This document shows positions 16,132-55,221 of a stretch of 64,000 nt of DNA, one piece after another (position 1 is the stretch's first letter; every line of letters starts with the position of its first letter). Origin of the DNA: Flavobacteriales bacterium (lineage in GTDB: Bacteria; Bacteroidota; Bacteroidia; Flavobacteriales_D; CAJJDF01); assembly GCA_965657945.1 (NCBI GenBank), contig CBFHPW010000002.1, positions 99,818-163,817 on the forward strand, in the 5' to 3' direction. Below the pieces are notes generated by a model that was given only the letters and a program-made list of their open reading frames with translations, was not told the origin of the DNA and did no database searches. A program made the translations under genes and the position numbers.

Positions 16132-16336
16132 GAATACGATCACATTTCATTGGTTTTTACAATCAATTAAGACGAGTAGGTAACAATCCTATTCCCAAAA
16201 AATAACGGGAAAAATTGTACAATTTGGTTAGTCAATAGTTAAAACGTGCATCTAAAGCAAAATAAACCACCCTAACTCAATAGCATTTCACATTTTTTGT
16301 ATGTTCTGTTTTAAGTCCTTTATTAAAACAAACAAG

Positions 16337-17299: not shown

Positions 17300-17335
17300 A
17301 AACCATTTTTCATTAATTGCCAAAAAAAATAAGGT

Positions 17336-18121: not shown

Positions 18122-18127
18122 AAAATT

Positions 18128-18913: not shown

Positions 18914-18919
18914 AAAATT

Positions 18920-19717: not shown

Positions 19718-19723
19718 CTAGTT

Positions 19724-32316: not shown

Positions 32317-33252
32317 TTGACACAAAATCCAATTCACCCCTTTATTTTGCAACTTCTTCAGTTTTTAATTATTCCATTACTCTACCTGGCTGTTTTTCCT
32401 ACGAGCGGTCTTTGCCAATCAGATTCCCAACAGGTATTGGAAGAATTTCTATGGAGTGAATGTTTCGATTCTAACAAACTGTCTACCCAACGAATCCGCA
32501 CTATCACTCAATCTCACTTTCACAAGCTCCCCTTGGAACCAATTATCAAGACAAGAAGCAAAATTACGTTTTGGGAATTGAACAAAGACGGGAAAGTAAC
32601 GATGAATTACAACACTGTGCCCTTAAACGACACCCTCGTGGATACTACTGCTCGTTGGAATTTCTATAAAAACAACCGACTTTCCATGACAAAAAAAACA
32701 GGAATAGCGGGCATTGTGGTGAAAACTATCTCGTACCAAAATGACTTACCTATCCGTTTCATTTATGGAAAATCAAAAAACAATAGCCGGTCAAAAATTG
32801 AGCTACAATTAGATTCCTATCATGAGGGAAGAAGCGAATATTTAGAGCACACTCAATTTGGTGACGGAAACCATCAAACGACTTACAAAAGCTCGGATGG
32901 AGTTGTCTTCAAAATAGTATTGAATGAATCACTAGACAGTAATATGCAGATTATTCGCACTCAATTTCCCTATCAATCGGAGAAAGATTTTACCATCGAA
33001 AAAATTGAGAAAAACCACACTATTAAAAGCATAACGATCAAGAAAAAAAATGAAGTGTTAAAAAATTATGTGTTTACCTACGAGCTAAAACTTACAGAGT
33101 TTGAAACCTTTGAATCGAAAAACGGGAAATCTATTTCGCATACTGAATTGATTTACGAGGAGGCAACAGGCCTGTTACAAGCCATACTGACGAAGAATTT
33201 GCACAACGAGGAAATACACATAACCAAATACCACTACACCTATTATGAATGA
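32317..33252 (+). CDS. Hypothetical secreted protein
   Basis: 311-aa ORF with a hydrophobic N-terminus and no motif recognised. The start codon is uncertain. Confidence 0.55.
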   Translation: MTQNPIHPFILQLLQFLIIPLLYLAVFPTSGLCQSDSQQVLEEFLWSECFDSNKLSTQRIRTITQSHFHKLPLEPIIKTRSKITFWELNKDGKVTMNYNTVPLNDTLVDTTARWNFYKNNRLSMTKKTGIAGIVVKTISYQNDLPIRFIYGKSKNNSRSKIELQLDSYHEGRSEYLEHTQFGDGNHQTTYKSSDGVVFKIVLNESLDSNMQIIRTQFPYQSEKDFTIEKIEKNHTIKSITIKKKNEVLKNYVFTYELKLTEFETFESKNGKSISHTELIYEEATGLLQAILTKNLHNEEIHITKYHYTYYE

Positions 33253-36035: not shown

Positions 36036-37607
36036 ATGGCCAACAAATACTCTAGTCATCTTTACGAACTAATCAATTCCTTGTCTAAGGCAGAGAAGAG
36101 ATATTTTAAAGTTTATGTATCGCGGCATACAGCTGCCGATTCTCAAAACAATGCCCAAATTTTGTTTGATGCCATAGACAAACAAACAATATATGAAGAA
36201 GAACAATTACTGGAGCAGTTAAGCGAACACGTTTTTATTAAAAAATTTTCTATCGCCAAAGCTCGGTTGTACGACACTATATTAAAAAGTCTTGATGCCT
36301 TTTACAGCGAAAAATCCAAAGAGCAAATCATTCGGAATGAACTTCATTTCATTGAGATTCTTTTCGAGAAATCTTTGTACAAACAAAGTTTGAAACGACT
36401 AAAATCTGCTAAAAAACAAGCACAAAAATATAACAAAACGCATCTATTACTGGAACTACTGCAATGGGAGAAAAAACTGATTGAGAAGGATAATTACCAA
36501 TCCACTTCTTCAAAAAGTCTAACCGACTTGAGCTCAGACGAAAACGAATTAATCGCAAGCCTTTCGCTTAATTCACAACTCTGGGAAATAAAATCTCTTT
36601 TGTTTCATAAACTCAATAAAGTTGGAAGAGCAAGGACTGAAGAAGAAATTCAGTTTCTGAAAAAAGATTTAGAACCGGTAATTTCCAAAATAACAATACC
36701 TAAATCCAAAATAGGACTGTCCTACTTATTTAATCATCTGAAGGGAGCATACTACTTTGGTATTCAAGACAACAAAAATAGCTTGGAAACGGTTCTTCAA
36801 ACTATTGAAATTCTGGAAGAGAACCCGAATCATTTTGGGGACGAACCTAATATTCTAGTTTCAACTTTGGCCAATGGGGTATATTTATCAATAAAAAACG
36901 AAGATATTCAGGTTGCTCAGCAGTTATATGCCAAATTAAAGATCCTTTTTGAAATCCATGAAGAGAGCGGAAGCAAAGATTTAAAAATAAAAATGAAGTC
37001 GAGCTTGTGGAGCATTCAATTGCTCTTAATTAAGTTAACTTGTGATTTTTCGGCATTCGACAAGCTTGAATCCAAAATCACGCAATTCATAGAAACAAAC
37101 GAGAACAAAATAAACAATTCTCGATTGGCTTTCTTTTACTACAATCTTTCACACATTCTATTTATCCAAGATAAATTTTCTGAATCTCTAAAATGGACAA
37201 ACAAATTGCTGAACAATATAGCCATTGATCAATCACAGGAAATATATTCTTTTGCCGAATTACTCAACTTATTTTTACATTTTGAATTAGGCAATTACGA
37301 GCTGGTTCAGTATAACTTAAAATCCACAAAAAGATTCTTAAAGACAAGAAACAAGCTCTTCGCCTATGAAGAAATTTTATTGAATTTCTTTTCAAAAACG
37401 ACTCACCCCAGTTTTAGCAAGTTTGATTTGGACGTTCAATTCTCGTTGCTGATAACCAAACTTTCGAAACTGGACAAAAAAGAAATTCATCAAATTCCAC
37501 TAGAGTATTTTGAGTGTACTAACTGGGCTGAATCCAAGTTAAAAAACAAAAAGCTAAGCGACATTATCAGAACTCAAAACAAGTCGTTGATAAATTTTCA
37601 ATTATAG
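36036..37607 (+). CDS. Hypothetical 523-aa protein, apparently all-helical
   Basis: Long clean ORF with no signal peptide. K/E/L-rich, repeat-like helical composition. No motif recognised. Confidence 0.6.
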   Translation: MANKYSSHLYELINSLSKAEKRYFKVYVSRHTAADSQNNAQILFDAIDKQTIYEEEQLLEQLSEHVFIKKFSIAKARLYDTILKSLDAFYSEKSKEQIIRNELHFIEILFEKSLYKQSLKRLKSAKKQAQKYNKTHLLLELLQWEKKLIEKDNYQSTSSKSLTDLSSDENELIASLSLNSQLWEIKSLLFHKLNKVGRARTEEEIQFLKKDLEPVISKITIPKSKIGLSYLFNHLKGAYYFGIQDNKNSLETVLQTIEILEENPNHFGDEPNILVSTLANGVYLSIKNEDIQVAQQLYAKLKILFEIHEESGSKDLKIKMKSSLWSIQLLLIKLTCDFSAFDKLESKITQFIETNENKINNSRLAFFYYNLSHILFIQDKFSESLKWTNKLLNNIAIDQSQEIYSFAELLNLFLHFELGNYELVQYNLKSTKRFLKTRNKLFAYEEILLNFFSKTTHPSFSKFDLDVQFSLLITKLSKLDKKEIHQIPLEYFECTNWAESKLKNKKLSDIIRTQNKSLINFQL

Positions 37608-38073: not shown

Positions 38074-39522
38074 ATGAATACGAAATATACTGAAGATGAT
38101 TTAAAAGAAGATTTGAAAACTCAAGAATACGAGTTTGGGTTTACGACATCTGTAGAGTCCGAGAAAATTGAAAAAGGACTGAACGAAGATATCATTCGAA
38201 TGATTTCTGCTAAAAAAGGAGAGCCAGATTGGTTATTGGATTTTAGACTACAATCTTTTGAAATCTGGAAAAACATGAAAGAACCAGAATGGGCTCACGT
38301 GAAATATGACAAACCAGATTTTCAAGATATTCATTATTATTCATCTCCAAAAAAAGAAGCAAAAGACTGGGATGAGGTAGACCCAGAAATTAAAGCCACG
38401 ATGGATAAATTGGGTATATCTATGGACGAACAGAAAAAACTTCAAGGAGTTGCAGTAGACTTTGTGATGGATTCAGTTTCGGTTGCCACTTCTTTCAAAG
38501 AAAAACTAGGAGAACTGGGAATTATTTTTGGTTCATTTAGCGATGCAGTCAAAGAACACCCCGAATTAGTAAAAAAATATTTAGGCTCAGTAGTCCCACA
38601 ATCAGATAATTTTTATGCCGCTTTGAACTCTGCGGTATTTACTGATGGTTCTTTTTGTTACATTCCAAAAGGAGTGAAATGTCCGATGGAATTATCTACT
38701 TACTTCAGAATTAACGAAGCAAATACTGGTCAATTTGAAAGAACTTTACTTATTGCGGATGAAGATAGCTACGTGAGCTACCTAGAAGGTTGTACGGCTC
38801 CGATGAGAGACGAAAACCAACTTCACGCTGCGGTAGTAGAACTCGTTTCATTAGCTGGCGCTGAGATTAAATACTCTACCGTTCAAAATTGGTACCCAGG
38901 AGACAAAGACGGCAAGGGTGGAATTTTTAACTTCGTGACCAAAAGAGGAATTTGTGAAGGATACAAATCAAAAATCTCTTGGACCCAAGTAGAAACAGGA
39001 TCTGCCGTTACTTGGAAATACCCTTCTTGTATCTTAAAAGGTGATTCTTCTGTAGGTGAGTTTTACTCGATTGCTGTTACGAATAACCACCAAATGGCGG
39101 ATACCGGTACTAAAATGATTCATTTAGGTAAGAATTCGAAAAGTACGATTATTTCAAAAGGAGTTTCTGCTGGTAACAGTCAAAATTCTTACAGAGGATT
39201 GGTACAGATTCACAAGAATGCAACTAACTCAAGAAATTTTTCTCAATGTGACTCATTGTTGATGACCGATGAATGCGGAGCGCATACTTTCCCTTACATC
39301 GAATGTAACAACAAAAGCTCAAAAGTAGAGCACGAAGCGACAACTTCAAAAATTGGTGAGGACCAATTGTTTTATTGTTTGCAGCGCGGAATCAGTGAAG
39401 AAAAAGCTATCAGTCTAATCGTAAATGGTTATGCCAAAGATGTATTAAACAAACTCCCAATGGAATTTGCTGTAGAAGCACAAAAGTTATTAGAAATCTC
39501 CCTAGAAGGAAGTGTAGGATAA
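38074..39522 (+). CDS. sufB: Fe-S cluster assembly scaffold protein SufB
   Basis: Characteristic length, and [13 protein letters not shown] and [15 protein letters not shown] signatures. Confidence 0.95.
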
Positions 39523-39549
39523 TTACCTGTTTTGCATAATTCTAATGAA

Positions 39550-39587
39550 AAAAGGACGGTAGCTTCGCAGCTACCGTCCTTTTTTTA
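39550..39587. terminator. Strong hairpin terminator between convergent sufB and the ccp-like gene
   Basis: GGACGGTAGCT (39554-39564), loop TCGC, AGCTACCGTCC (39569-39579). The stem is flanked by an A-run and a T7 run. Confidence 0.8.
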
Positions 39588-39622
39588 TCTCACAACGTAG
39601 AATCAATTTAATTACTTCACGA

Positions 39623-40576
39623 TTACTGGATTTGATAAAGATTCTTATCTGTTAAAGAATGGAGAAAGTTTACTAAATCTTCCTTTTCAGAAGTCGATAA
39701 CATAAGTGGTTCTATCATCACACTGTCTAAATTAATTGGAGCAGGAACAAACATATACAAGTTGTTGTAAAAATCAATTACTTCCTCCAACGTTTCTAAA
39801 CTGCCATCATGCATGTATGGAGCTGTCAACGCAACATTTCTTAATCCAGGAACTTTGAACTTCCCTAAATCATTTGAATCTCCAGTTATATCAAATCTGC
39901 CTTTATCTGTGTATTCTTTGCCATCGTACAGACCTATGTTTCTGAATTCATCACCTGTAAAGTCTGGACCAAAATGGCAATCAAAACACTTTGCCTTTTC
40001 TAAAAAAAGTTCTCGTCCTCTTTGTTGAGATTTGGACAAAGCTAAAGGCTCTTCGTCATTCATCCACAAATCATGTGGAGCACTTCCATCACTTTCAAGA
40101 CTACGTTGAAAACTAGCCAAAGCACTTGTCAAATTACTTTTTGATGGTAAGTCCCTATAAATTTTATCAAAAAGCGCCACATAAAGCTCCGAATTCAAAA
40201 GTCGATTTACAGCTGAATCAATTGACAAATTCATTTCAACTGGATTTTCTATTGGACCTATCGCTTGCTCTTCCAATGAGGAAGCTCTACCATCATAAAA
40301 AAAATGAGAACGACTTGCCATATTCATAACAGACGGAGTATTTCTTGTTCCAAGGCTGTCATTTACTCCAAAAGATAAACTTCTATTATCCGCAAATGCG
40401 AATTCCGGCTTGTGACAACTTCCACAAGAAATTGATTTATCGTGCGACAATATTGGATCAAAAAATAGTTTCTCTCCTAACTCAGACTCACTAACTATCT
40501 TTTTAATTTCAACTTGATTAGAATCAAAGCAACCCGAAACACCTATAATGAACAAGGAAAAAATAATTATTCTCAT
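39623..40576 (-). CDS. Di-haem cytochrome c peroxidase family protein
   Basis: Two CXXCH motifs (CGSCH, CFDCH), PGLRNVALTAPYMHDG, and a lipoprotein-like signal (GVSGC). Confidence 0.85.
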   Translation of the reverse strand: MRIIIFSLFIIGVSGCFDSNQVEIKKIVSESELGEKLFFDPILSHDKSISCGSCHKPEFAFADNRSLSFGVNDSLGTRNTPSVMNMASRSHFFYDGRASSLEEQAIGPIENPVEMNLSIDSAVNRLLNSELYVALFDKIYRDLPSKSNLTSALASFQRSLESDGSAPHDLWMNDEEPLALSKSQQRGRELFLEKAKCFDCHFGPDFTGDEFRNIGLYDGKEYTDKGRFDITGDSNDLGKFKVPGLRNVALTAPYMHDGSLETLEEVIDFYNNLYMFVPAPINLDSVMIEPLMLSTSEKEDLVNFLHSLTDKNLYQIQ

Positions 40577-40640
40577 GCTTCAAAAGTAACTAGATCCATA
40601 AAAATTATATGTGACAAATATCACTTTATCACATAAAAAA

Positions 40641-40708
40641 TCCAAAGAACTATAGTTCTTTGGATTCATAAAAAAAAGCCCAATCTTAACGATTGGGCTT
40701 TTCATCAT
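40641..40708 (-). terminator. Tandem rho-independent terminators after the giant gene
   Basis: On the minus strand, AGCCCAATC-GTTAA-GATTGGGCT (40677-40699) is followed by T8. Then TCCAAAGAAC-TATA-GTTCTTTGGA (40641-40664) is followed by T6. Confidence 0.8.
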
Positions 40709-40722
40709 TTTTAGTCAGCTAC

Positions 40723-43700
40723 TTACTTATTAATCTGTACGTAACCGTTGTATACTTTTTTGTCTACTGTGTTGGTTCCTAAATCGATTACATAGAAGTA
40801 AGTTCCGTTTGGTAGCATTCCATTGCCCATCGCTTTTCTTGCCATGTCATCTACGTTAGACTTCCCGATAAACTCATTCGTGTAGCCTCTTTGTTCAAAT
40901 ACTAAGGTTCCGTATCGGTTAAAGATTTTTACTACGTTCTGTGGGTAGTTTCCTAACTCTGCTAAATCCCAGAAGTCATTCTTCCCATCTCCGTTTGGTG
41001 AGATAAATTGTGGGATATCTAATTCCTGCTCACAGTTCACTATCACATCAAACGTACATGAGTCTGCATTCATCGAGGCATCAGTCGTTACGATAGTTAT
41101 CGTTACTCTTCCGTTTACTGCTGACACTTCGGTTCCTGCTGCTGGGAACTGCTCTGTTGTGGTTCCATTAACTATACAGTTGTCTGTGTTTGAACTCTCC
41201 CATGCGAAGTCTTCTACCACATAAGTACAAGTTGTGTTTCTCACCGTTCTGTTCTTATCCGCTGGACAGAATACTACTGGCGCTACATTGTCTTCTACTG
41301 TTACCGTAGCTACACAACTCGATACGTTTCCATACAAGTCAGTTACAGTAAGGGTGACTTGATTTCTTCCTACGTTGCTGCAGTCAAAATCTGTCTTGTC
41401 TACATTCACACTCGATACTGCACAGTTGTCAAAGCTTCCACCATCTACATCACTCGCTACTATCGTAGCTTGTCCATTGGCATCTAAGCTAATCGTAATG
41501 TTCTGACAGACTGCTGTTGGTGCTAAGTTGTCTACCACTGTTACTGTGGCTGTACAACTTGCTGTGTTTCCACTTGCATCTACTCCAGTGAGTGTCACCG
41601 TGTTCACTCCTACTTGAGTACAGTTGAATGTACTGTTCGATAGGCTCAACGTGATTCCACAGTTGTCGCTGCTTCCGTTGTCTACATCTATCGTAGTGAT
41701 GGTTGCGTTTCCTGTTGCATCTAATGCGATGGTTGTTGATTTACACAACACTACTGGTGCTAACGTATCTAGGATAGTCAACGTGGTTGTACACGTGGAT
41801 CTGTTTCCACTTGCGTCTACTCCAGTAAGTGTTACCGTGGTTGTTCCTATATCGGCACAAGTGAATGTGCTTCTGGATACACTCATCGTTACTATGCCAC
41901 AGTTGTCACTGCTTCCTCCATCTACTTCACTTGCTGTTAATGTTGCCATGCCCATTGCGTCCAAGTAAATCGTTGCGGGTGCACAACTCATGATTGGAGC
42001 TAATGTATCCAGTACTGTGATTGCACTTGTACAAGTTGATGTGTTTCCTGATGCATCCGTTACGGTAAGCATTGCCATACTCGTTCCTAAGTCAGTACAA
42101 GTATAGGTGGACTGAGAGACACTCATCGTGAATGTACAGTTGTCACTGCTTCCGTCATTGATCATGGCAGCTGTTAGGCTTGCTGTTCCTGATGCGTTCA
42201 AGTACAACGTATCTGCTTTGCAAATAGCTACTGGAGCTATCGTATCCAATACGGTTACTACGGCTACACATGTTGAGGTGTTTCCTGCTACATCGGTTGC
42301 CGTTAACGTTACGTTGTTTGCTCCGGCATCTGAACAAGTAAACAGGGTATCCGTGATCGACAACGTTACTCCACAGATGTCACTGCTTCCATTGTCAATA
42401 TCACTTGCTACTAATCTTGCCACTCCATTAGAGTCTAAGTAAATCGTGGCTGACTTACACAAGGCTATCGGATTGATGGCATCTACTACGGTTACTACTG
42501 CCGTACAAGTTGAAGTGTTTCCACTTGCGTCTGTTCCGGTAAGGGTGACCATGTTTGTTCCTAAGTCGGCACAAGTAAAGGTGGTTTGTGACAAGCTCAG
42601 TGTGAAGTCACAGTTATCCGTACTTCCATTGTCCACATCCATAGTAGTGATTGTCGCTACTCCTAAAGCATCCAAGTTTACTGTTACTGGTTGACAGTTC
42701 ATCACTGGTGATAATGTGTCTTGAATATCAAATGCAACTAATCCTACGGTTGTGTTTCCAGAAAAATCAGTAGCAGTTATCACCATAGTATCAATTCCTA
42801 TATCTGAACAATACACATAATTTTTAGAAATAGTTATTGATAAACCATCACAGTTATCAAATGCAGGTCCAGGAAGACCAGATGTTCCTAAAGCAAAAGA
42901 ATAAGGTAGTATTGGTGCTTTTCCTGTTGAATCTAAATAAATATCAAAAGCACCGCCTGATAAATAAGGAGGCATTACTGGTGGTGTGTTATCTACTACA
43001 GTTACTGTTGCTGTACAAGTATCTGAGTTTCCGTTTCCATCGGTTCCTATCAACGTTACCGTATTTGTACCTAGATCGGCACAAGTAAAGGCAGTGTTAG
43101 ATAAACTCAATGTCATTCCACAATTGTCACTGCTTCCATTGTCAACGTCTGCAATCGTTAATGTTGCATTTCCTGAACTGTCTAAGTAAATAGTTGCTGG
43201 CTTACAGATTACTACCGGTGCTGTCGCATCTACAACAGTTACTACTGCCGTACACGAATCTACATTTCCGCTTCCATCTATTCCTACTAACGTTACCGTG
43301 TTCGTTCCAATGTTCGTACAATCAAAGGTTGTGTTTGACAAACTCATTGTCATTCCACAATTATCCGAACTTCCATTGTTTACATCACTTGTTGTTATAA
43401 TTGCGTTTCCTGATGCATCCAAGTTTACTGTTACTGATTGACAAACCATGGTCGGTGCCAAAGTATCCAGTACTGTTACAGTCGTTGTACAGGTACTTGT
43501 TAACCCTTGTGCATCTCTCACGGTTAACGTTACCGTATTCGCTCCAATTGATGAACAGTTGAACGTAGTTTGAGAAAGACTCAAGCTTACTGAACAGTTG
43601 TCGCTACTACTGTTATCGATGTCGCTTGCAGCTAAGGTAGCCACTCCTGAAGCGTTCAGGTAGATCGTATCTGGTCGACAACTTGCTACTGGTGGCGTTA

Positions 43701-46700
43701 AATCAATTACCGTAACAGTTGTTACACATGAATCAACGTTTCCGTTGGCATCTGTTACCGTTAAGGTCACTGAGTTGACTCCTAAATCAGCGCAAGTAAA
43801 TGCGGTTTGAGAAGCACTTAGTGTAATGTTGTTACAGTTGTCTGAAGATCCATTGTTGATGTCAGAAGCTACAATTCTTGCGTTTCCTGTGGCATCTAAA
43901 TATGCAGTGGTAGGTTGACAAACTACTATTGGATTCACTGAATCTACTACCAACACCGTTGCGTCTGCTGAACTTACGTTCCCAGAGTTATCTGTAACGG
44001 TTACCGTTACTGTATTCATTCCTATGTTCGCACAAGAGAATGCTGAATCACTCAACGCTATCGTTGCAATTCCACAGTTGTCTGTACTTCCGTTTTCAAT
44101 GATACTCAAGCTTGTGGATGCCGTCCCCATTGAATTTAAGTAAACTGTATCATTCGCTAAGTTTACTATCGGGGATATCGTATCTAACACCACTACTCTT
44201 GATGTGGCTGAAGAGGTATTTCCACTTCCGTCTCTTATCGTGGTGGTTACATTGATAAATCCTGTCGTTCCATTTACATCTGAACATAACGCTGAATCAA
44301 CATTCATCCATACTGAATCTACCGTACAGTTGTCCCAAGTTGACGTCACAACAAAACTGGTGTCAAAATCAAATTGACCATTGGCTGCTAAGTAAACCAT
44401 TGTGTCCGTTACGGTTATTGCTGGTGCAATTGTATCTAACACGGTTACATTCGCCACACAAGAATCCATGTTTCCAGAGTTGTCTCTTATGTAGAGAGGT
44501 ATTGGACTAGATTGACCACAACTGAACAATAACGTATCAGAAAGTGAAATTGGTGTAAATCTATAGATAGTTCCATTTGGAATTATTCCACTCATATAAG
44601 CAAGACCGTCACCATCATCCAAAAATTCTACTGTTGGAGACAAAGGATTGCCTGAAAGAATTTGAGATTTACCCTTGTAGTCATAACCATCATAATCAAA
44701 CAAAGACGAAATACCAACTCCCCAAGGACCATTTTCTCCGTCATACGAGGCAATAAAATCATTTAAGACCGTTGGTCCATAATGAAATTCTATTTTGTTG
44801 CCATTTTCATAAATCCACAATTGGAGATTTACATAATCTTCATATACATCGTCATCATCTGTATCTCCATGATAAAAACCAGCATTCTTCCACTCTATTT
44901 TTGTAATACGATTTCCTGCTACCCCCGTTGTCTTATATGATATGGGTGATAGAGATAATCCATTTTCACTTCCACGATCAATCAAATCTACACCTAACGG
45001 CACTATTACAGGAGTTATTTGATTACTAGTTAACCCTAACTCTGCACCGTATCCAGTAATGATTAATGAATCTAAGGTATTACCATAAAAATTAAAATTA
45101 AATCCTAATGGGATTTCTAATTCAGGGTCATCCCATGTGTTTCCATTATTTAGAGAAATTGCGCTAGTAAGATTGGAATAAACACCGCTTGACTGAGAGA
45201 AGAAATAGGTAGTATCTATTGCAGTTGTAAGAAAAGAACCTAAATTAGTCCATACTGAATCCACACCACAATTGTCCGCATATCCATCTTGTAAACTTAT
45301 TACAGGAACTCTAGCAACACCCAATGAGTCAATGTAAAAGGTGGTGTCCACACATAAAATAGTTGGATTGATGGTATCGAGTACAGTAATTGTTGCACTT
45401 GCGCTGTCCATGTTTCCTGATAAATCCACTGCGTACACAGTGACGTTTACTGAATCATTGGCACACGAAGCTGAAGTTGCACTCATCCAAACTGAATCAA
45501 GGGTACAGTTTTCTGTGACGCTAGTAAGAACAGCACTTGTATCAAAGGCTACATTTCCAGAAGCATCCAAATACAACGTGGTATCGTGGGCTACTAAGAT
45601 TGGTAACAAGGTATCCAATACATAGACTCTTGCCATTGCTGAATCGATGTTTCCACTTCCATCTTGGATGTAAGCCGTTACCTCAATTGAATCGTTGGCG
45701 CATGTGGCACTCGTGTGACTCAACCACACTGAATCTACTGTACAGTTGTCCCATGTAGAAGTAACAATGTCCGAAGTATCGAAACTTACAGTTCCTGCTG
45801 CTGATACATACACCGTTGCATTTTGAACTGCAATATTTGGTACAATTGAATCTCTCACTGTAACATTCGCTACACAAGAATCGATGTTTCCTGAATTATC
45901 TCTTACGTAAACCGTTACTTGTTCGTTGGAGTTTGAGCAATTGAAAGTTGGATTTGGGTAATTAATTAAAAAATAAGCATCATAAGTTCTAGAGGATAAA
46001 TAATTATCCGGATTTCCATTTGTATATCTAAAAAATGCCGAAATTGAATTAGATATTCTCGCCATTACCTTTATTCTGCTTCCTCCAGAATTTAATGGTT
46101 TTATAACCCAACTATATCTACCTGAAGTCAAATTTAAATTTGAGAATGGAAATACCTTATTACCTATTGAACTAATAGCTATTTCCGTTGAATCGATAGC
46201 ATTTAATCCAGAATCTTGATAAATTACCATTCTAAAGGATCCAGAAGATACACTTGTAAAATTAACTTCAACAGAATTAATTTTTATATACGAGGTCAAT
46301 TCAAATGTTTGACCAGCAAATTGATTTGAATTAATATCAAAGTAGCTAAATCCAAAAATGGAAGGCTGTCCAAAACTCGAAGTTGACAATAATGGAGACC
46401 ATACCGAATCCACTCCACAGTTATCAGCAAAACCATTCTGAATAAAGGAGGTGTCCAAATAAGCTAATCCATTTGAATCTAAATAGACAGTTGTGTCCAC
46501 ACAAGCTATCGTTGGATTGATGGTATCCAACACGGTAACCGTTGCGGTTGCGCTGTCCATGTTTCCTGATAAATCCACTGCATACACAGTTATGTTTACT
46601 GAATCATTGGCACAAGAAGCTGTAGTAGCACTCATCCAAACTGAATCAATTGTACAGTTTTCTGTGACACTCGTAAGCACAGCACTTGTATCAAATACAA

Positions 46701-49700
46701 TGTTTCCTGTTGCATCCAAATACAACGTGGTATCATGAGTTAGTATGATTGGAGCAAACGTATCAATTAAATACACAAAGGCTATTGCAGAATCAATGTT
46801 TCCACTTCCATCTTGGATGTAAGCCGTTACCTCAATTGAATCGTTGGCACATGTGGCACTCGTGTGACTCAACCATACTGAATCAATCGTACAGTTGTCC
46901 CAAGTTGATGTCACAATGTCAGACGTATCGAAACTTACAGTTCCTGCTGCTGATACATACACCGTTGCATTTTGAACTGCAATGTTTGGAACGATGGTAT
47001 CACTTACAGTCACGTTCGCTATGCACGAATCGATGTTTCCAGAGTTATCTCTTACGTAAACGGTTACTTGTTCGTTTGAGTTAGAACAGATATAATCTTT
47101 AGATTGTACTTCAAGTACATTAGATTCAAAACCATAAGCTAGCAAAGTCGTATTGCTTGGAGTTAAGGTCAAAGGAGTTGACCAGGCGGATGAACTATAC
47201 CATCTTAATCCGCTCGTGTTCTGACTGGAAGAATAGGATAATTCTCTTACTTGTAAATCAGCCATAGATGTCGGTTCAATCATGAATGCATACCTTCCAG
47301 ATGACAACTGAATTCCTGTTAATGGAATTGATACAAGGCCTGTATTAGTCACTGTATATGCCGTTGAAACTAATGCAGTTGACAAGGTAGAATCTGAATA
47401 AATAGTCAAGTTAATTGGTGCAGAACCTCCATTTAATCGTTCTACATGAAACTTAAATACAGTCAATTCTGAGTTGTAATCAACCACGAATGTATTTCCT
47501 ACGAATGATGTATCCCCATTTGAAGGGTTATAATAAATATTTCGAGCAAAGGTTGCAGTATTTGTAGAATCATAAGAGATCGTTGCATTCGCAGGATAAC
47601 GCAAAGCTCCTGACATCCAAAGACTCTCCACCCCGCAATTATCGGTAAATCCATTTTGTACAAACGATGTATCAATAGATACCGAACCGTTTGAATCTAA
47701 ATATACAGTTGTATCAACACAAGTTATCGTTGGATTGATTGTATCGAGAACAGTAATTGTTGCCGATGCACTGTCTGTGTTTCCTGATAAATCCACTGCA
47801 TACACTGTTACGTTTACTGAATCATTGGCACAGGTTGCTGAAGTAGCACTCATCCAAACTGAGTCAAGGGTACAGTTTTCTGTGACACTCTTAAGCACAG
47901 CGCTTGTATCAAACGCAATGTTTCCAGTTGCATCTACATACAACGAGGTATCGTGAGCTACTAAGGTTGGAGCAAACGTATCAATTAAATACACAACAGC
48001 TATGGCAGAATCAATGTTTCCACCTCTATCTTGGATGTAGGCTGTTACGTTAATTGAATCGTTGGCGCATGTAGCACTCGTGTGACTTAACCACACTGAA
48101 TCAATTGTACAATTATCCCATGTAGAAGTCACAATGTCAGACGTATCTATACTTACAGTTCCTGCTGCTGATACATACACCGTTGTGTCAACACAAGTTA
48201 TCATTGGCAAGATCGTATCAGTATTGGAATTATTGAGTGTCAAATTCAATGTCACAATACTATCACAGCCAACTCCATTAGTTAATGTATCCGTTGCTGT
48301 ATTATTGGAACTCGTATAAGTTACTCCATTTATCCAAGTGTAACTGTCACAGGCTGTTTGAATATCTGTTCCTGTAGTGGACGCTAAGATCGTTAAGTCT
48401 AAAGTTACAATTGAATCAAATCCTGCAGCATTGGTTAAGGTGAATGTTGCCGTGTCATTATCTGAGGTATATGTATTTCCATCAATCCATGTATATGAAT
48501 CACATGCCGTTTGAATATCAGTTGAATAAGTAGCGGGTGTTGTTAATGCATTGAACTCAAACGCTCCGATATCCTTAGCTCCATTATTAAAAAAACCACG
48601 TTGATCGTTACCTGGAACAGTTACTGAACCATTTGATCCAGTAAATCCTGCATCAATGGCTACACTTCCCGCAGAAAGCGCTAAAGTCAATACACCGCTG
48701 GTAGCACCGTTAAGCGCTAAGCTGCTCGATAAATTCAAGTTCGCCTGAGTTCCCGTTATTGTGCCAGTACCGGAAGGTGTGATAGAAGATCCTGCATAGG
48801 TTTCAATGATATTAGAACCATTGTCAATAATATTCGATGCCCAAGAATCTGTGTTGAAGTCGATATCTGCTGGTCCACCATTTACCGTGTTTTGAGCAAT
48901 AATGTTGTTCTTTAAATATAATTTTCCCGGACCTTGTTGCATGTAAACGACATAAACACCACCTCCTTTCCCAGATGCGGAGGATACAGAGTTGTAAGCA
49001 ATAGTATTGTTAGTTAAGACTGTTTGGTTGTACCAGGATAGAATTGCACCTCCACTTGTTTCGGAGGAATTAGCGGTAAATGTTGAATTTGTTACATGCA
49101 CTGTATTAGAACGGAAAAAACCCATACCTCCAGCCACATTGTGGTAACCGACACCAAACTCGTTACCATCGGTAGATGAATTATTGTTGAAAGTACATCG
49201 GTTGATTGTCACATAATTCCCTTGAAGTGAATAAAGACCTCCAGCACCATATGCCTTACCAGTGGCGCTGTTATTACGAATGATGCAATCATTTAAGCGC
49301 AAATCTGGGTGAAAGGAAGTGTTTCCGCGTAAGTAAATACCACCAGCGAAATAGTAATTAGTCGTAACACCGTTATCAATTTCATTGTTTTCAATAATAC
49401 AATTATTGAGCGTAACAATATTATTTCGGGTTTGATCCAAGACCGTGATCCCCCCGGCATTTTTTTCCTGATTGGTATTGAATCCGTTGCGGATCGTCAA
49501 ATGTTCTAGGGTAATATCATGATTTATAGTAAAAACACATCTATCGGCTGTTCCAGGAGTTGGAGCGGATTGAATAAATGTTAGACCTGCACCATCACCA
49601 ACAATTGTTAGAGCTTTCAACAGAGAGAACCCCGTGATTGCAGCATCACCTGTTTCTTGGGCGTCTGTCCAATCAAACGTACCGGAAAGTGCAACCGTAT

Positions 49701-49869
49701 CTCCACTAGAAGCTGCGTTATAAGCAGCTGTGAAGGATCTCTTCGCGGTCGAAGGTGATAATCCGTTATTAGAATCGTTCCCTGTAGAACTGTTCGCGTA
49801 ATAAGTTGTTTGGGCTTGACTCAAAACCGAAATAAATCCAACAAGAAGAGATAAAGATAAATGTTTCAT
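40723..49869 (-). CDS. Giant (3048 aa) cell-surface protein: beta-helix + split-domain super-repeats + HYR/Ig-like array + T9SS type-B C-terminal domain
   Basis: Signal peptide MKHLSLSLLVGFISVLSQAQ. Parallel-beta-helix turns (NNCIIENN, NDCIIRNN, NRCTFNNN, LTNNTIAYN) at nt ~48545-49810. Two CDSYTW modules at 48245-48525. About 23 domains of the form ...DNC...D.SGN..SC...VTV.D..P. The C-terminus IPQFISPNGDGKNDFWD...IFNRYGTLVF...NGTYFYVI (nt 40726-41030) matches the gliding-motility-associated / type-B sorting domain. Confidence 0.9.
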   Translation of the reverse strand: MKHLSLSLLVGFISVLSQAQTTYYANSSTGNDSNNGLSPSTAKRSFTAAYNAASSGDTVALSGTFDWTDAQETGDAAITGFSLLKALTIVGDGAGLTFIQSAPTPGTADRCVFTINHDITLEHLTIRNGFNTNQEKNAGGITVLDQTRNNIVTLNNCIIENNEIDNGVTTNYYFAGGIYLRGNTSFHPDLRLNDCIIRNNSATGKAYGAGGLYSLQGNYVTINRCTFNNNSSTDGNEFGVGYHNVAGGMGFFRSNTVHVTNSTFTANSSETSGGAILSWYNQTVLTNNTIAYNSVSSASGKGGGVYVVYMQQGPGKLYLKNNIIAQNTVNGGPADIDFNTDSWASNIIDNGSNIIETYAGSSITPSGTGTITGTQANLNLSSSLALNGATSGVLTLALSAGSVAIDAGFTGSNGSVTVPGNDQRGFFNNGAKDIGAFEFNALTTPATYSTDIQTACDSYTWIDGNTYTSDNDTATFTLTNAAGFDSIVTLDLTILASTTGTDIQTACDSYTWINGVTYTSSNNTATDTLTNGVGCDSIVTLNLTLNNSNTDTILPMITCVDTTVYVSAAGTVSIDTSDIVTSTWDNCTIDSVWLSHTSATCANDSINVTAYIQDRGGNIDSAIAVVYLIDTFAPTLVAHDTSLYVDATGNIAFDTSAVLKSVTENCTLDSVWMSATSATCANDSVNVTVYAVDLSGNTDSASATITVLDTINPTITCVDTTVYLDSNGSVSIDTSFVQNGFTDNCGVESLWMSGALRYPANATISYDSTNTATFARNIYYNPSNGDTSFVGNTFVVDYNSELTVFKFHVERLNGGSAPINLTIYSDSTLSTALVSTAYTVTNTGLVSIPLTGIQLSSGRYAFMIEPTSMADLQVRELSYSSSQNTSGLRWYSSSAWSTPLTLTPSNTTLLAYGFESNVLEVQSKDYICSNSNEQVTVYVRDNSGNIDSCIANVTVSDTIVPNIAVQNATVYVSAAGTVSFDTSDIVTSTWDNCTIDSVWLSHTSATCANDSIEVTAYIQDGSGNIDSAIAFVYLIDTFAPIILTHDTTLYLDATGNIVFDTSAVLTSVTENCTIDSVWMSATTASCANDSVNITVYAVDLSGNMDSATATVTVLDTINPTIACVDTTVYLDSNGLAYLDTSFIQNGFADNCGVDSVWSPLLSTSSFGQPSIFGFSYFDINSNQFAGQTFELTSYIKINSVEVNFTSVSSGSFRMVIYQDSGLNAIDSTEIAISSIGNKVFPFSNLNLTSGRYSWVIKPLNSGGSRIKVMARISNSISAFFRYTNGNPDNYLSSRTYDAYFLINYPNPTFNCSNSNEQVTVYVRDNSGNIDSCVANVTVRDSIVPNIAVQNATVYVSAAGTVSFDTSDIVTSTWDNCTVDSVWLSHTSATCANDSIEVTAYIQDGSGNIDSAMARVYVLDTLLPILVAHDTTLYLDASGNVAFDTSAVLTSVTENCTLDSVWMSATSASCANDSVNVTVYAVDLSGNMDSASATITVLDTINPTILCVDTTFYIDSLGVARVPVISLQDGYADNCGVDSVWTNLGSFLTTAIDTTYFFSQSSGVYSNLTSAISLNNGNTWDDPELEIPLGFNFNFYGNTLDSLIITGYGAELGLTSNQITPVIVPLGVDLIDRGSENGLSLSPISYKTTGVAGNRITKIEWKNAGFYHGDTDDDDVYEDYVNLQLWIYENGNKIEFHYGPTVLNDFIASYDGENGPWGVGISSLFDYDGYDYKGKSQILSGNPLSPTVEFLDDGDGLAYMSGIIPNGTIYRFTPISLSDTLLFSCGQSSPIPLYIRDNSGNMDSCVANVTVLDTIAPAITVTDTMVYLAANGQFDFDTSFVVTSTWDNCTVDSVWMNVDSALCSDVNGTTGFINVTTTIRDGSGNTSSATSRVVVLDTISPIVNLANDTVYLNSMGTASTSLSIIENGSTDNCGIATIALSDSAFSCANIGMNTVTVTVTDNSGNVSSADATVLVVDSVNPIVVCQPTTAYLDATGNARIVASDINNGSSDNCNNITLSASQTAFTCADLGVNSVTLTVTDANGNVDSCVTTVTVIDLTPPVASCRPDTIYLNASGVATLAASDIDNSSSDNCSVSLSLSQTTFNCSSIGANTVTLTVRDAQGLTSTCTTTVTVLDTLAPTMVCQSVTVNLDASGNAIITTSDVNNGSSDNCGMTMSLSNTTFDCTNIGTNTVTLVGIDGSGNVDSCTAVVTVVDATAPVVICKPATIYLDSSGNATLTIADVDNGSSDNCGMTLSLSNTAFTCADLGTNTVTLIGTDGNGNSDTCTATVTVVDNTPPVMPPYLSGGAFDIYLDSTGKAPILPYSFALGTSGLPGPAFDNCDGLSITISKNYVYCSDIGIDTMVITATDFSGNTTVGLVAFDIQDTLSPVMNCQPVTVNLDALGVATITTMDVDNGSTDNCDFTLSLSQTTFTCADLGTNMVTLTGTDASGNTSTCTAVVTVVDAINPIALCKSATIYLDSNGVARLVASDIDNGSSDICGVTLSITDTLFTCSDAGANNVTLTATDVAGNTSTCVAVVTVLDTIAPVAICKADTLYLNASGTASLTAAMINDGSSDNCTFTMSVSQSTYTCTDLGTSMAMLTVTDASGNTSTCTSAITVLDTLAPIMSCAPATIYLDAMGMATLTASEVDGGSSDNCGIVTMSVSRSTFTCADIGTTTVTLTGVDASGNRSTCTTTLTILDTLAPVVLCKSTTIALDATGNATITTIDVDNGSSDNCGITLSLSNSTFNCTQVGVNTVTLTGVDASGNTASCTATVTVVDNLAPTAVCQNITISLDANGQATIVASDVDGGSFDNCAVSSVNVDKTDFDCSNVGRNQVTLTVTDLYGNVSSCVATVTVEDNVAPVVFCPADKNRTVRNTTCTYVVEDFAWESSNTDNCIVNGTTTEQFPAAGTEVSAVNGRVTITIVTTDASMNADSCTFDVIVNCEQELDIPQFISPNGDGKNDFWDLAELGNYPQNVVKIFNRYGTLVFEQRGYTNEFIGKSNVDDMARKAMGNGMLPNGTYFYVIDLGTNTVDKKVYNGYVQINK
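41040..44421 (-). repeat. Array of 14 tandem ~79-aa (~240-nt) HYR/Ig-like domain repeats inside the giant gene
   Basis: Units follow P-x-x-x-C-x-P-x-T-x-Y-L-D-x-x-G-N-A...DNGSSDNC...F-x-C-x-x-x-G-x-N-T-V-T-L-T-x-x-D-x-S-G-N-x-x-x-C-T-x-x-V-T-V-x-D. The last unit (CPADKNRTV...DSCTFDVIVNC) is closest to a canonical HYR domain. Confidence 0.85.
44422..48213 (-). repeat. Three super-repeats (about 406, 383 and 480 aa), each two intact Ig/HYR-like domains plus a third one split by an inserted domain
   Basis: The marker ACAGTTCCTGCTGCTGATACATACAC recurs at 48155, 46937 and 45788, giving spacings of 1218 and 1149 nt. Long near-identical DNA blocks are shared between units. Inserts lie at about 47100-47615, 45950-46400 and 44535-45250. 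Confidence 0.85.
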
Positions 49870-49938
49870 TTTAATTGTTTTAATTTGTTGCGAAAATAAG
49901 GATTTTATTTTAACTGAAAATGAAGAGTAATTAAATTT

Positions 49939-50254
49939 TTAGTTTGTCTCTAAGTAATTCTGCTCGCAGACTGGCGAATTGAAGACAACGGCACCATTTA
50001 TTGTTACCTCTAAATTGGCTGCTAGAATAGAAAAGAAATTGGTTGTTGTAGTGCCATACCTTCCCATGTAAATGAGCACTTTTTTAAATGAAAGGTCTTC
50101 CCGCCCCATTGAAAAAATAGGTTGAAGTGAACTTAATGTCGTTTATTTCACCTGTTCTGTTGTTTGAGACAGTAATAGAACCATTTCCTGAAGCATTCAA
50201 TGAAAAGAGATTTAACAACGATACTAGGACAAAAACAAACTGTTTTTTCTCCAA
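49939..50254 (-). pseudogene. Possible frameshifted small secreted-protein gene just upstream of the giant gene
   Basis: The first ORF (TTG at 50254 to TAA at 50084) reads (M)EKKQFVFVLVSLLNLFSLNASGNGSITVSNNRTGEINDIKFTSTYFFNGAGRPFI*. In the +1 frame, protein-like sequence continues as EDLSFKKVLIYMGRYGTTTTNFFSILAANLEVTINGAVVFNSPVCEQNYLETN* (stop at 49939). The switch falls near T6, G4 and A6 homopolymers at ~50085-50115. Local GC is higher than in the surrounding spacer. Confidence 0.3.
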
Positions 50255-50377
50255 TTAATTTTTACCCTTTTCTTTTGACAAACGATGTTTTTTATGATAT
50301 AAATTATTAAAAAATAGAACTCTACATAAATTAACACAAAAGAACGATTCTTTCGACCACTATTATCGATGTACGAA

Positions 50378-50728
50378 GTAATATTGTTGTAAACAATCAA
50401 AGAAAAAGACCTAAAACATTGCATTAAAATCAATTAATAAAAACATCTTATTCATACTATTGATTAGTAACAAATTAAGTTCAAAATAATCAGTAGGTTC
50501 TTTACATAAAACAATCAAATCAAGATTCTATACGTAATATTGTAGTAATTTTTAACAGTTGATATTTCATACTAATTTTTTATTCAGTAAATTAAACGGT
50601 TTTGAGCTAAAACAAAACCCTATAAGTATTTTCTACTATGTAGTACAAAAGAAGTGTTTTGTGTTATTAGTAAACTTCCTTCCTTAAAAACATTTGTACA
50701 ACCAATGAATAAGTAGTAATATTGTAGT
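50378..50728 (+). repeat. Three dispersed copies of GTAATATTGTWGT in the AT-rich control region
   Basis: Copies at 50378-50390 (GTAATATTGTTGT), 50534-50546 and 50716-50728 (both GTAATATTGTAGT), all in the same orientation. Copy 1 overlaps the perfect 6-3-6 palindrome ATTGTTgtaAACAAT (50383-50397). Copy 3 ends 18 nt before the regulator ATG. Its TAATATTG resembles the Bacteroidota -7 box TAnnTTTG. Confidence 0.4.
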
Positions 50729-50746
50729 TAAATAAAGCTGCATACT

Positions 50747-53478: not shown

Positions 53479-55221
53479 ATGAATTCACTCCATAAAATCG
53501 CCCTTGTTTTATTGGTCCTTTTGGGAATTGTTTCGTGTATTAAATCGGTTTACGAACCCGATATTTGGTGGCAAATTGCAACAGGAAATTGGATATTAGA
53601 AAATGGAAAAGTTCCAACTACCGATATCTTTTCCTACACGTATGCGGGAGATCCTTGGATAAATGTGAAATGGGGAAGCGAAGTAGTCATGGCACTTTTC
53701 ACCAACAGTTTTGGGGTGGAGTTACTCCCTATTATTCAAATGTTGGTTCTCTTAATTATGTTGTTCGTTCTTTACAAGACCTCTTTATTATTGATAAATA
53801 AAACCTTCTCAAAAGAAATAATCCGAATAGCATTTGGGGTAGTGAGTGTGCTATTTTTATTTCTAGTAAACTATCGATTGAATAGCAGACCAGAGATGTT
53901 CTCCCATTTGTTTACCACGGTACTTTTGTACCTACTTATTCGTTTCTACAAAACAAATTCTCCTTTTATTTTTTGGCTTATTCCACTCCAAATTTTATGG
54001 GTAAATATGCACGAAGCATTCGGAGTGGGTATGGTAGTCTCAGTTTTGTTTACTCTTGTCCTTTGGTTTGAACACCTATTTTTACACAGAAAATACGCTG
54101 TGGGATTTTCACATCCGCCTATTAAACTATCCCTTGCAACCTTAATTTCCATTTTGTCTGTAAGTATAAATCCTCAAGGAATAAAGATGATTCTTCACCC
54201 ATTCAATATTCTCGGCCAACTAAATGAAAATAAATACACGGAAGAATTAATTTCCTACAATACAGAAGGATACTGGCAATATCAATCAATTATAATGGTA
54301 ATTTTAACCGCCATATTGTTGGGGTATATGCTTAAAAAAGGAAAAGGAACTCTTCTTACAAAACCCTCTTCACTATTCGGACTTGCCCCTACTCTAGTAA
54401 TTTTTTCATTTTTGTATTTATCACTCACCAGTTTCCGAAACATCCCTTTCTTTTTGATTGCCTTATTTCCTGTTTTGGTTTGGGTTGTCGGTTCTATTAT
54501 TTCGTCTTTCGGCACTCTTAACTCGTGGAATTTCTCCCTCATTGCAAGCCAGGTGGTATTTTACATCGTCTTAGTGAACGGAACATTTTATTCTATTTTG
54601 CTTCCGCAAGAAAAATATGGACTTCAAGTTCGGGCAGAAATGAATCCAATTGGCGTTTCCAACTTTATGATAAAACATAACATACAAGGAAAGGGATTTG
54701 TCGATTATCTATCTAGCTCTTATCTTCTTTACAAAAACCCTGGTTTTAAGTCCTACATCGATTTACGAGATCTAGATGTATTTCCAACAAATTTCTTTGA
54801 CAACGTATTTTTTATTTATCAAAACCCTTCAACTCCCATTCAAGGCGGTGGAACACCTTGGAGTTTTGCCGATAGCGTTGATCAATTTAATTATGTTGTA
54901 ACGCTCAACAATCCTCAGTTTAAGCAATTCAATCAATTTCTTTTTCACGAAAATCCAGCATTTGAATTAATCTATGCCGATAACCTAAATTCACTGTTTA
55001 TTCGAAAAACTGAGGAAAACAAAAACCTTTTTCACCAGTTCGGATTTAAACCTAACAGAGCAATTTTTAGACAAACTTCATTGCCAAAAACGAACACCCT
55101 AGCCAATTCAATTTCACGACTTTTCAAGTGGAACTATCAACCCGAAAAGGCGAGAGATTTTGCTACCCAATCTCAAAGCAACACTTATTACAACTACTTA
55201 GGAATTCAATATGTGGATTAA
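53479..55221 (+). CDS. Polytopic membrane protein of unknown function (about 12 TM helices plus a C-terminal soluble domain)
   Basis: 580-aa ORF with many hydrophobic helices. The architecture recalls membrane glycosyl/arabinosyl-transferase-like proteins, but I recognise no diagnostic motif. Confidence 0.6.
   Translation: MNSLHKIALVLLVLLGIVSCIKSVYEPDIWWQIATGNWILENGKVPTTDIFSYTYAGDPWINVKWGSEVVMALFTNSFGVELLPIIQMLVLLIMLFVLYKTSLLLINKTFSKEIIRIAFGVVSVLFLFLVNYRLNSRPEMFSHLFTTVLLYLLIRFYKTNSPFIFWLIPLQILWVNMHEAFGVGMVVSVLFTLVLWFEHLFLHRKYAVGFSHPPIKLSLATLISILSVSINPQGIKMILHPFNILGQLNENKYTEELISYNTEGYWQYQSIIMVILTAILLGYMLKKGKGTLLTKPSSLFGLAPTLVIFSFLYLSLTSFRNIPFFLIALFPVLVWVVGSIISSFGTLNSWNFSLIASQVVFYIVLVNGTFYSILLPQEKYGLQVRAEMNPIGVSNFMIKHNIQGKGFVDYLSSSYLLYKNPGFKSYIDLRDLDVFPTNFFDNVFFIYQNPSTPIQGGGTPWSFADSVDQFNYVVTLNNPQFKQFNQFLFHENPAFELIYADNLNSLFIRKTEENKNLFHQFGFKPNRAIFRQTSLPKTNTLANSISRLFKWNYQPEKARDFATQSQSNTYYNYLGIQYVD

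Follow-up and report, generated by a model that had tools for sequence, protein, structure and literature searches.

On its reverse strand, the 64,000-nucleotide stretch analyzed here (Flavobacteriales bacterium, contig CBFHPW010000002.1, hereafter the window) carries one giant gene, which is a real, intact surface-protein gene. Judged by its sequence, the product is a type IX secretion system (T9SS) cargo with a type-B C-terminal sorting domain (CTD), and our best reading is that it is probably a T9SS-anchored, multivalent fibrillar adhesin of about 317 kDa, very acidic, from a Crocinitomicaceae-type (Flavobacteriales) bacterium. Its most distinctive feature is a set of three Ig-like HYR domains in its N-terminal part, each of which is split at the same point by an inserted domain. 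Comparisons within the protein and with its relatives establish the domain anatomy, the nesting of domains, their homologies and their modular variation as described below.

Giant T9SS cargo proteins are plentiful in Bacteroidota genomes, and a function has been assigned to almost none of them. From its N- to its C-terminus, the present one consists of a signal peptide, a beta-helix head, two CDSYTW modules, three super-repeats (A, B and C), a stalk of tandem HYR domains and the CTD (Table 1). The original prediction, made from the letters of the window, had described an uninterrupted 9.1-kb reading frame of 3048 residues with these parts, and all of them were recovered at the positions it had given.

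Table 1. Features of the giant gene, its product and the adjoining intergenic regions (residues in the 3048-residue precursor; positions in the window)
Feature	Residues	Window position	Strand	Basis
Whole giant gene		40723..49869	-	3048 codons plus stop, no internal stops
Sec signal peptide (MKHLSLSLLVGFISVLSQAQ)	1-20	49810..49869	-	Sequence inspection
Predicted head, right-handed parallel beta-helix ending in choice-of-anchor Q	21-450	48520..49809	-	AlphaFold2, Foldseek, NF041518
Two 51-residue CDSYTW...GCDS modules	451-554	48208..48519	-	Sequence, homologue comparison
Super-repeat A (h1, h2, split s3; 406 residues)	555-960	46990..48207	-	Self-BLAST, HYR HMM halves 1-41 and 37-78
ins1, within split s3; cysteine-free near-orphan	758-925	47095..47598	-	HMM halves, self-comparison
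Super-repeat B (h4, h5, split s6; 383 residues)	961-1343	45841..46989	-	Self-BLAST, HYR HMM
ins2, within split s6; divergence hotspot	1160-1308	45946..46392	-	HMM halves, orthologue comparison
Super-repeat C (h7, h8, split s9; 472 residues)	1344-1815	44425..45840	-	Self-BLAST, HYR HMM
ins3, within split s9; RemA-N-terminal-like	1547-1780	44530..45231	-	HMM halves, family profile
Stalk of 14 tandem ~79-residue HYR domains, last degenerate	1816-2947	41029..44424	-	Pfam HYR, unit HMM
T9SS type-B C-terminal sorting domain	2951-3046	40732..41019	-	PF13585, TIGR04131
Two terminator-like hairpins, 20-85 nt past the stop codon		40638..40702	-	3 terminator-like sites found vs 0.3 expected
Upstream intergenic region, 877 bp, GC 0.31, shared with divergent PAS/LuxR gene		49870..50746	.	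Sequence

Split HYR domains and their inserts

The protein matches the Pfam HYR (hyalin repeat) family (PF02494) at 86.5 bits (cut-off 21.7), and four stretches pass individually. A hidden Markov model (HMM) built from 12 of the C-terminal array units matched 12 units with E-values of 1e-29 to 1e-38 and recovered 23 HYR-like units in the whole protein, including the nine units of the super-repeats, which are too diverged for Pfam HYR and are linked to the array by this unit HMM at E-values of 1e-12 to 1e-15. The count of 14 tandem domains given in the original prediction holds for the C-terminal array, the last unit being degenerate, whereas the protein as a whole contains 23 HYR-like units rather than 14. 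The three super-repeats, predicted to span about 400 residues each, were also recovered, and the scaffolds of super-repeats A and B share 73-91% identity.

Each super-repeat begins with two whole HYR units, and its third unit (s3, s6 or s9) matches the HMM as two halves, covering model positions 1-~40 and ~37-78. Between the halves lie 168 residues in s3 (ins1), 149 in s6 (ins2) and 234 in s9 (ins3). When the inserts were excised in silico, each of the three units aligned along the whole of the HYR HMM (hmmalign), so the earlier description of these super-repeats as containing split domains was correct. The insertion point is identical in the three units and lies between the invariant cysteine of the D-N-C motif and that of the F-x-C motif. 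Because a second pair of cysteines, at unit positions 5 and 69, is jointly present or absent in 21 of 22 units, we infer two disulfides per HYR unit; the inserts themselves contain no cysteine at all.

An AlphaFold2 model of s9 with ins3 (residues 1502-1815) reached a predicted local distance difference test score (pLDDT) of 82.3 and a predicted TM-score (pTM) of 0.74; its two HYR halves contain confidently predicted strands, and the insert is beta-rich and well folded. It was built from an alignment of 10 ins3 homologues, since with more of them MAFFT misaligned the HYR halves. In the giant adhesins of the RTX (repeats-in-toxin) class, ligand-binding domains bud from Ig-like split domains located toward the distal end, and split domains are an accepted marker of ligand-binding domains (PMC12077191). 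By this usage the three interrupted HYR units are split domains, as the HMM halves, hmmalign and, for s9, the AlphaFold2 model agree. The best Protein Data Bank (PDB) match of the HYR unit profile is an RTX-adhesin extender domain, that of AhLap (6xi3, E 5.5e-4). The top Foldseek titles for the s9 and ins3 model are RTX entries named "peptide-binding domain and adjacent split domain", which are non-significant and serve as an analogy only.

The three inserts are of two kinds. ins1 and ins2 are about 23-25% identical to each other, and hhalign comparisons found them unrelated to the ins3 family and to HYR. A word-index homologue search with either returned no matches, they had no Pfam match, and a profile search of the PDB was empty; an exhaustive profile search of 1.8 billion representative sequences yielded eight weak matches with inconsistent Pfam content. 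By these searches ins1 and ins2 are near-orphan domains.

In isolation, ins3 likewise had no true Pfam match, but it belongs to a recognizable family: over some 90% of its length or more it is 31-46% identical to most of 36 stand-alone proteins of about 335 residues, each composed of a signal peptide, an ins3-type domain and a type-A sorting domain. ins3 corresponds exactly to the mature passenger of such an independent type-A cargo, and its existence in stand-alone form indicates that the inserts are autonomous domains. Gene neighbourhoods of the stand-alone homologues were uninformative. A family profile made from ins3 and 31 relatives (ins3 being 31-49% identical to family members) matched residues 5-257 of Flavobacterium johnsoniae RemA (PDB 8gl6 chain D) with an E-value of 1.1e-22 and a domain i-Evalue of 1.4e-19, with shared motifs Y-x-F-S...TY-x-x-LT, F-x-F-x-F, RI-x-KIEW...FY and FQ-x-W-x-YE-x-x-NKIE. 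A single-sequence phmmer search of the PDB with ins3 alone returned nothing and did not reach RemA, so the homology between the ins3 family and the RemA N-terminal domain, which the profile match supports, is remote. To our knowledge, the function of that RemA domain is not established.

Gene integrity, relatives and modular variation

At the base composition of the gene a stop codon is expected about every 15 codons, and the chance of such an open frame is therefore about 1e-91. The computed pI of the mature protein is about 4.05. Within the reading frame, the DNA repeats are 60-91% identical to one another, and exact repeats reach 59 bp at most; collapse or expansion of repeats during assembly is therefore unlikely.

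An intact orthologue with conserved upstream synteny was found in another Flavobacteriales metagenome-assembled genome (MAG), here L001. The original prediction had proposed comparing orthologues for variation in repeat number, and this comparison revealed such variation: the L001 protein has two super-repeats where the window protein has three, and it keeps all 14 units of the array. What it lacks is h2, the split s3 with ins1, and h4 (residues 634-1039), which together make up one super-repeat in register; with these residues removed, the window protein is 93% identical to it. In every segment of the two genes dN/dS is below 1 (pN < pS), which shows purifying selection throughout and is consistent with a functional gene.

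An assembly artefact (repeat expansion or chimera) or a decaying, functionless pseudogene would account for the highly repetitive nature of the gene, for the orthologue's having one super-repeat less, for a nonsense codon in a second relative and for a break of synteny at the 3' end of the gene (both described below). We consider this explanation very improbable, given a frame open across 3048 codons, repeats whose divergence leaves exact matches of at most 59 bp, an excess of synonymous change in each segment and an orthologue that is itself intact. Moreover, the additional super-repeat holds the unique ins1, which an assembly duplication could not have produced.

The sequence divergence between the two genes peaks in one insert. 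ins2 is only 63% identical to the insert of the orthologue, compared with 93-96% for the immediately flanking scaffold and 93% gene-wide. Its synonymous and nonsynonymous divergence (dS 1.57, dN 0.38) is about tenfold above that of the other segments, in which dS is 0.02-0.24. Positive selection on point mutations was considered and rejected, as dS is saturated as well; because dS is raised along with dN, exchange of the cassette is the better explanation, and the pattern indicates that the ins2 cassette was replaced by recombination between close relatives. Together, a super-repeat lost or gained in register and an exchanged ins2 suggest that surface specificity evolves in a cassette-like fashion.

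A second, milder divergence hotspot relative to the orthologue lies in HYR units 14-15 (residues 2139-2296, window 42982-43455), where identity is 74-86% and dS and dN are 0.29 and 0.087, compared with array means of 0.13 and 0.028.

The second relative, a JGI metagenome contig (3300025701, Ga0209771_1001458; here L011), is 96% identical to the window gene at the nucleotide level. It carries a single TAC-to-TAA nonsense change at positions 10949-10951, equivalent to window codon 308 inside the beta-helix head, and the gene caller had split the product into parts of 316 and 314 residues. This codon reflects either a strain-level loss or a consensus error. A metagenome scan with the scaffold found only relatives of 28-39% identity and no further orthologues.

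Export signals, head and genomic surroundings

The N-terminus has the features of a Sec signal peptide (MKHLSLSLLVGFISVLSQA, followed by Q): on inspection, an n-region with K and H, a 13-residue hydrophobic core and a cleavage site between SQA and Q. The same N-terminus is kept in L001 and L011, which bears out the signal peptide of the original prediction. At the other end, PF13585 (CHU_C) matches with 84-91 bits (84.2 in the whole-protein scan) against a cut-off of 27, over profile positions 2-86 of 86, and TIGR04131 with 45 bits (cut-off 35). Both scores exceed the curated cut-offs, confirming the gliding-type (type-B) sorting domain that had been predicted. The earlier view of a type-B T9SS cargo built like a surface fibre or adhesin is supported. 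The relatives belong to Flavobacteriales. No core T9SS genes were found within the window, which does encode a second T9SS cargo, of type A (19724-22375; TIGR04183, 54 bits).

For the head, the original prediction of a right-handed beta-helix of about 420 residues was confirmed by structure modeling. A Pfam scan of the isolated head (residues 1-450) gave no match, and the NCBIfam choice-of-anchor Q model (NF041518) matched residues 392-440 at 32.6 bits against a cut-off of 25. The AlphaFold2 model, computed from an alignment of 18 head homologues, has a pLDDT of 76.6 and a pTM of 0.81 and presents a stack of three-strand coils. Foldseek against the PDB returned right-handed parallel beta-helices only, with a probability of about 1: GH136 lacto-N-biosidase, PL9 pectate lyase, PL6 chondroitinase B, AlgE4 epimerase, pectin methylesterases (PME) and Rhombotarget A, with 1ru4, 7o78, 6kqs, 2pyg and 2ntb among the entries at probability ~1.0. 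E-values ranged from 3e-4 to 1e-2, TM-scores from 0.3 to 0.47 and sequence identities from 11 to 16%.

These matches raise the alternative that the protein is a surface-tethered enzyme which degrades or modifies polysaccharides, with a catalytic head (lyase, hydrolase or epimerase) that the stalk and inserts would only extend from the cell and target to its substrate. Every significant fold match of the head is a carbohydrate-active enzyme (GH136, PL9, PL6, AlgE4, PME), and the head is strongly conserved across its contexts (56-94% identity, with numerous invariant His, Arg, Asp and Lys residues). It also occurs in small secreted type-A cargo, a common habit of enzymes. However, neither Pfam nor NCBIfam contains a signature of a CAZy-type family (PL6, PL9, GH136, CE8) that matches the head, and a head profile searched against PDB sequences matched only the type-A CTD of the homologues and no CAZy family. 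The TM-scores are low, and beta-helices can be pure adhesins, as illustrated by PfbA, which is itself among the Foldseek matches. We regard the enzyme alternative as rather unlikely. Assignment of the head to a specific CAZy family is not supported, given the lack of a sequence model, the identity of 11-16% and TM-scores of at most 0.47.

Outside the giant protein, the head is found in stand-alone type-A cargo of about 600-860 residues (mostly ~618) from Fluviicola and other Crocinitomicaceae, at 56-69% identity; gene neighbourhoods of these homologues were uninformative. An 852-residue type-A cargo in a Brumimicrobium MAG (L002) bears the same head at ~79-89% identity. In this L002 gene (863-3421), which has a run of N (read as X) within it, the head is linked to an Ig-like segment, three or more CDSYTW modules and a CTD of type A.

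The CDSYTW modules were correctly counted as two in the original prediction, although their period is 51 residues rather than about 45. Among the 120 T9SS cargo matches listed, about 100 contain the module, in 2-11 tandem copies; its partners there are domains of many kinds, and it occurs together with either CTD type. T9SS proteins bearing the module number in the hundreds. The module is not covered by any genuine Pfam model and has no relative in the PDB. DUF7930 and DUF7316 matches in CDSYTW-rich proteins were sub-threshold and were rejected as spurious. The original prediction had regarded the N-terminal head and the super-repeats as non-standard; for the parts this has to be revised, as the head, the CDSYTW modules and ins3 all recur in other T9SS cargo, while their nesting and combination are unusual.

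The neighbours of the giant gene encode a di-haem cytochrome c peroxidase, SufA, SufB, a divergently transcribed PAS-LuxR regulator and PanB. With terminator-like hairpins beyond its stop codon (Table 1), the gene is probably monocistronic, and the upstream intergenic region probably holds its promoter. Short ORFs (open reading frames) of 46-56 residues are conserved just upstream in the three relatives (window 49939-50254, reverse strand; L001 9610-9939; L011 9808-9963). They include ...SLLNLFSLNASGNGSITVSNNRTGEINDIKF... and ...LIYMGRYGTTTTNFFSILAANLEVTING..., which lie in different frames in the window, and may mark either a conserved leader region or a gene that is small or has decayed. Upstream, synteny between the window and L001 extends over PAS-LuxR, PanB, a 580-residue ORF and further genes, whereas it is lost right at the 3' terminus of the giant gene (window 39500-40722, L001 17951-20805): downstream lie the peroxidase and SufB/SufA in the window, and CTP synthase and quinolinate phosphoribosyltransferase in L001.

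Several other ORFs of the window are without a recognizable family. The 580-residue ORF just mentioned (53479-55221, forward strand), which is syntenic in L001 and L011, had no Pfam match at E<=0.1, and the same holds for ORFs of 523 residues (36036-37607, forward), 356 residues (62634-63704, reverse) and 311 residues (32317-33252, forward). In the region 16301-22375, the type-A cargo noted above (883 residues, forward strand) is preceded by four ORFs on the same strand, of 332, 261, 261 and 265 residues, which had no Pfam or NCBIfam match; the three of about 261-265 residues look like tandem paralogues.

Proposed function and comparison with known adhesins

By the established T9SS pathway, the protein would be carried across the inner membrane by Sec, would fold and form its disulfides in the periplasm, and would then be directed to T9SS secretion by its type-B CTD. 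Type-B cargo is thought to be anchored via PorP-like proteins (PMC9143113), and three orphan type-B substrates of F. johnsoniae are served by one common shuttle encoded elsewhere (PMC12618676). A PorP/SprF-family shuttle or anchor, likewise encoded elsewhere in the genome, could hold the giant protein on the outer membrane. As the C-terminus would sit at the cell, the array of 14 HYR domains would form the cell-proximal stalk, and the distal third would place the head at the tip, with the three insert-bearing split HYR domains below it. The split domains may project ins1, ins2 and ins3 sideways as ligand-binding modules in the manner of RTX adhesins, the beta-helix tip may serve as a glycan-binding or glycan-cleaving module, and the fibre as a whole would act as an adhesin that binds several ligands, probably glycans, in a multivalent way.

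A number of observations weigh against this adhesin model. Ligand binding by the inserts is argued by analogy, and ins1 and ins2 are almost without homologues. That the two HYR halves pack into one sandwich is predicted from HMM matches, pLDDT and pTM, and the Foldseek likeness to RTX split-domain structures is non-significant (E 6e-3, TM ~0.1). No match to a PorP/SprF-like gene (PF11751-type) was found among the scanned ORFs of at least 120 residues in the window, nor was such a gene detected downstream of the L001 orthologue; linkage of PorP/SprF genes to type-B cargo is frequent, not obligatory (PMC12618676). Finally, given the nonsense codon in L011, the protein may be dispensable.

The fibre could alternatively be a mobile gliding adhesin in the functional sense of SprB and RemA, propelled along the cell surface by the gliding machinery to generate traction rather than static attachment. 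Its type-B CTD, as in SprB, the homology of the ins3 family to the N-terminal domain of a mobile adhesin, and the great length of the repetitive fibre are all in keeping with this alternative. Yet SprB repeats are absent, no sprC/D/F-like genes were found in the 64 kb and no PorP/SprF gene among its scanned ORFs of at least 120 residues, and most type-B cargo is not known to be mobile. We judge gliding to be an unlikely role; it is in any case compatible with an adhesin and does not exclude it.

On a more far-reaching reading, the split HYR domain may be the T9SS counterpart of the RTX split domain: a plug-and-play scaffold in which whole domains known elsewhere as separate type-A cargo, the RemA-N-terminal family among them, are inserted into a disulfide-closed loop of an Ig-like stalk domain, and from which recombination between strains swaps or deletes cassettes and so re-tunes what the fibre binds. 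We advance this idea tentatively, as a possibility that may well prove wrong. If true, unrelated secretion systems would have converged on one adhesin-building design, and split HYR domains could be used to locate ligand-binding modules across Bacteroidota, offering a sequence-based way of picking out the functional modules of giant T9SS proteins. Giant mosaic T9SS proteins are common, and display on split HYR domains with exchangeable cassettes offers a concrete idea about them. The split-Ig search rule of RTX adhesins appears applicable to this HYR-built T9SS fibre, and it singles out ins1, ins2 and ins3 as candidates for binding. A further new link is that between an uncharacterized family of small secreted proteins and the RemA N-terminal domain. 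The understanding of T9SS itself is unchanged by these findings.

No characterized family matching the whole architecture emerged from sequence and Foldseek searches of the PDB or from literature searches, in agreement with the earlier assessment that the architecture is not a standard one. With the whole protein as query, neither an exact-sequence look-up nor phmmer against the PDB gave a match, and no literature linking HYR domains with T9SS cargo or adhesins was found. Compared with the usual members of PF02494, with which it shares Ig-like units of about 79 residues with conserved cysteines, the giant protein differs in having three units broken by inserts of 149-234 residues and nine units too diverged for Pfam. 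The stand-alone choice-of-anchor Q cargo proteins resemble it across the whole head (residues 1-~440), but they are small and carry another domain after the head and a type-A CTD, whereas in the giant protein the head caps a 2600-residue stalk with a type-B CTD.

With F. johnsoniae SprB, the protein shares the type-B (TIGR04131/CHU_C) domain, the very large size and repetitive build of a surface protein, and the expected dependence on a PorP/SprF-family partner. Unlike SprB, it has an HYR stalk, no PF13573 repeats (none in the whole-protein Pfam scan at E<=0.01, although the same Pfam library finds SprB repeats in the protein P0101) and no adjacent sprF or sprC/sprD; no sprC/sprD/sprF-like operon was found around the gene or elsewhere in the window. 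Homology to SprB was rejected on the basis of the missing repeats and operon, and the "SprB-class" label of the original prediction does not hold as a statement of homology, no PorP/SprF gene having turned up among the scanned window ORFs of at least 120 residues either. We know of no counterpart of the head and the nested inserts in SprB. RemA, reportedly a mobile surface adhesin (Shrivastava et al. 2012, as listed in PMC5445135) and a lectin, resembles the giant protein through the ins3 family; there the domain stands at the N-terminus of a protein with a type-A CTD, whereas here it is nested in an HYR domain of a type-B cargo.

A close architectural parallel is provided by the RTX adhesins of the type I secretion system (T1SS), such as MpIBP of Marinomonas primoryensis, FrhA of Vibrio cholerae and AhLap of Aeromonas hydrophila, which are, like the giant protein, giant fibres of tandem Ig-like domains. 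The two differ in secretion and orientation: the giant protein would use T9SS, with a C-terminal anchor and a distal N-terminus, whereas RTX adhesins are secreted by T1SS on a signal at the C-terminus and are retained by their N-terminus. No RTX or HemolysinCabind families were found in the Pfam or NCBIfam scans, and the C-terminus is a T9SS CTD. The split scaffold of the giant protein is a disulfide-bearing HYR domain, and its inserts are unrelated to the CBM, PBD and vWFA modules of RTX adhesins. Split display has so far been described only in RTX adhesins, an unrelated giant class, and by analogy the giant protein can be regarded as RTX-adhesin-like in architecture without being a member of that class.

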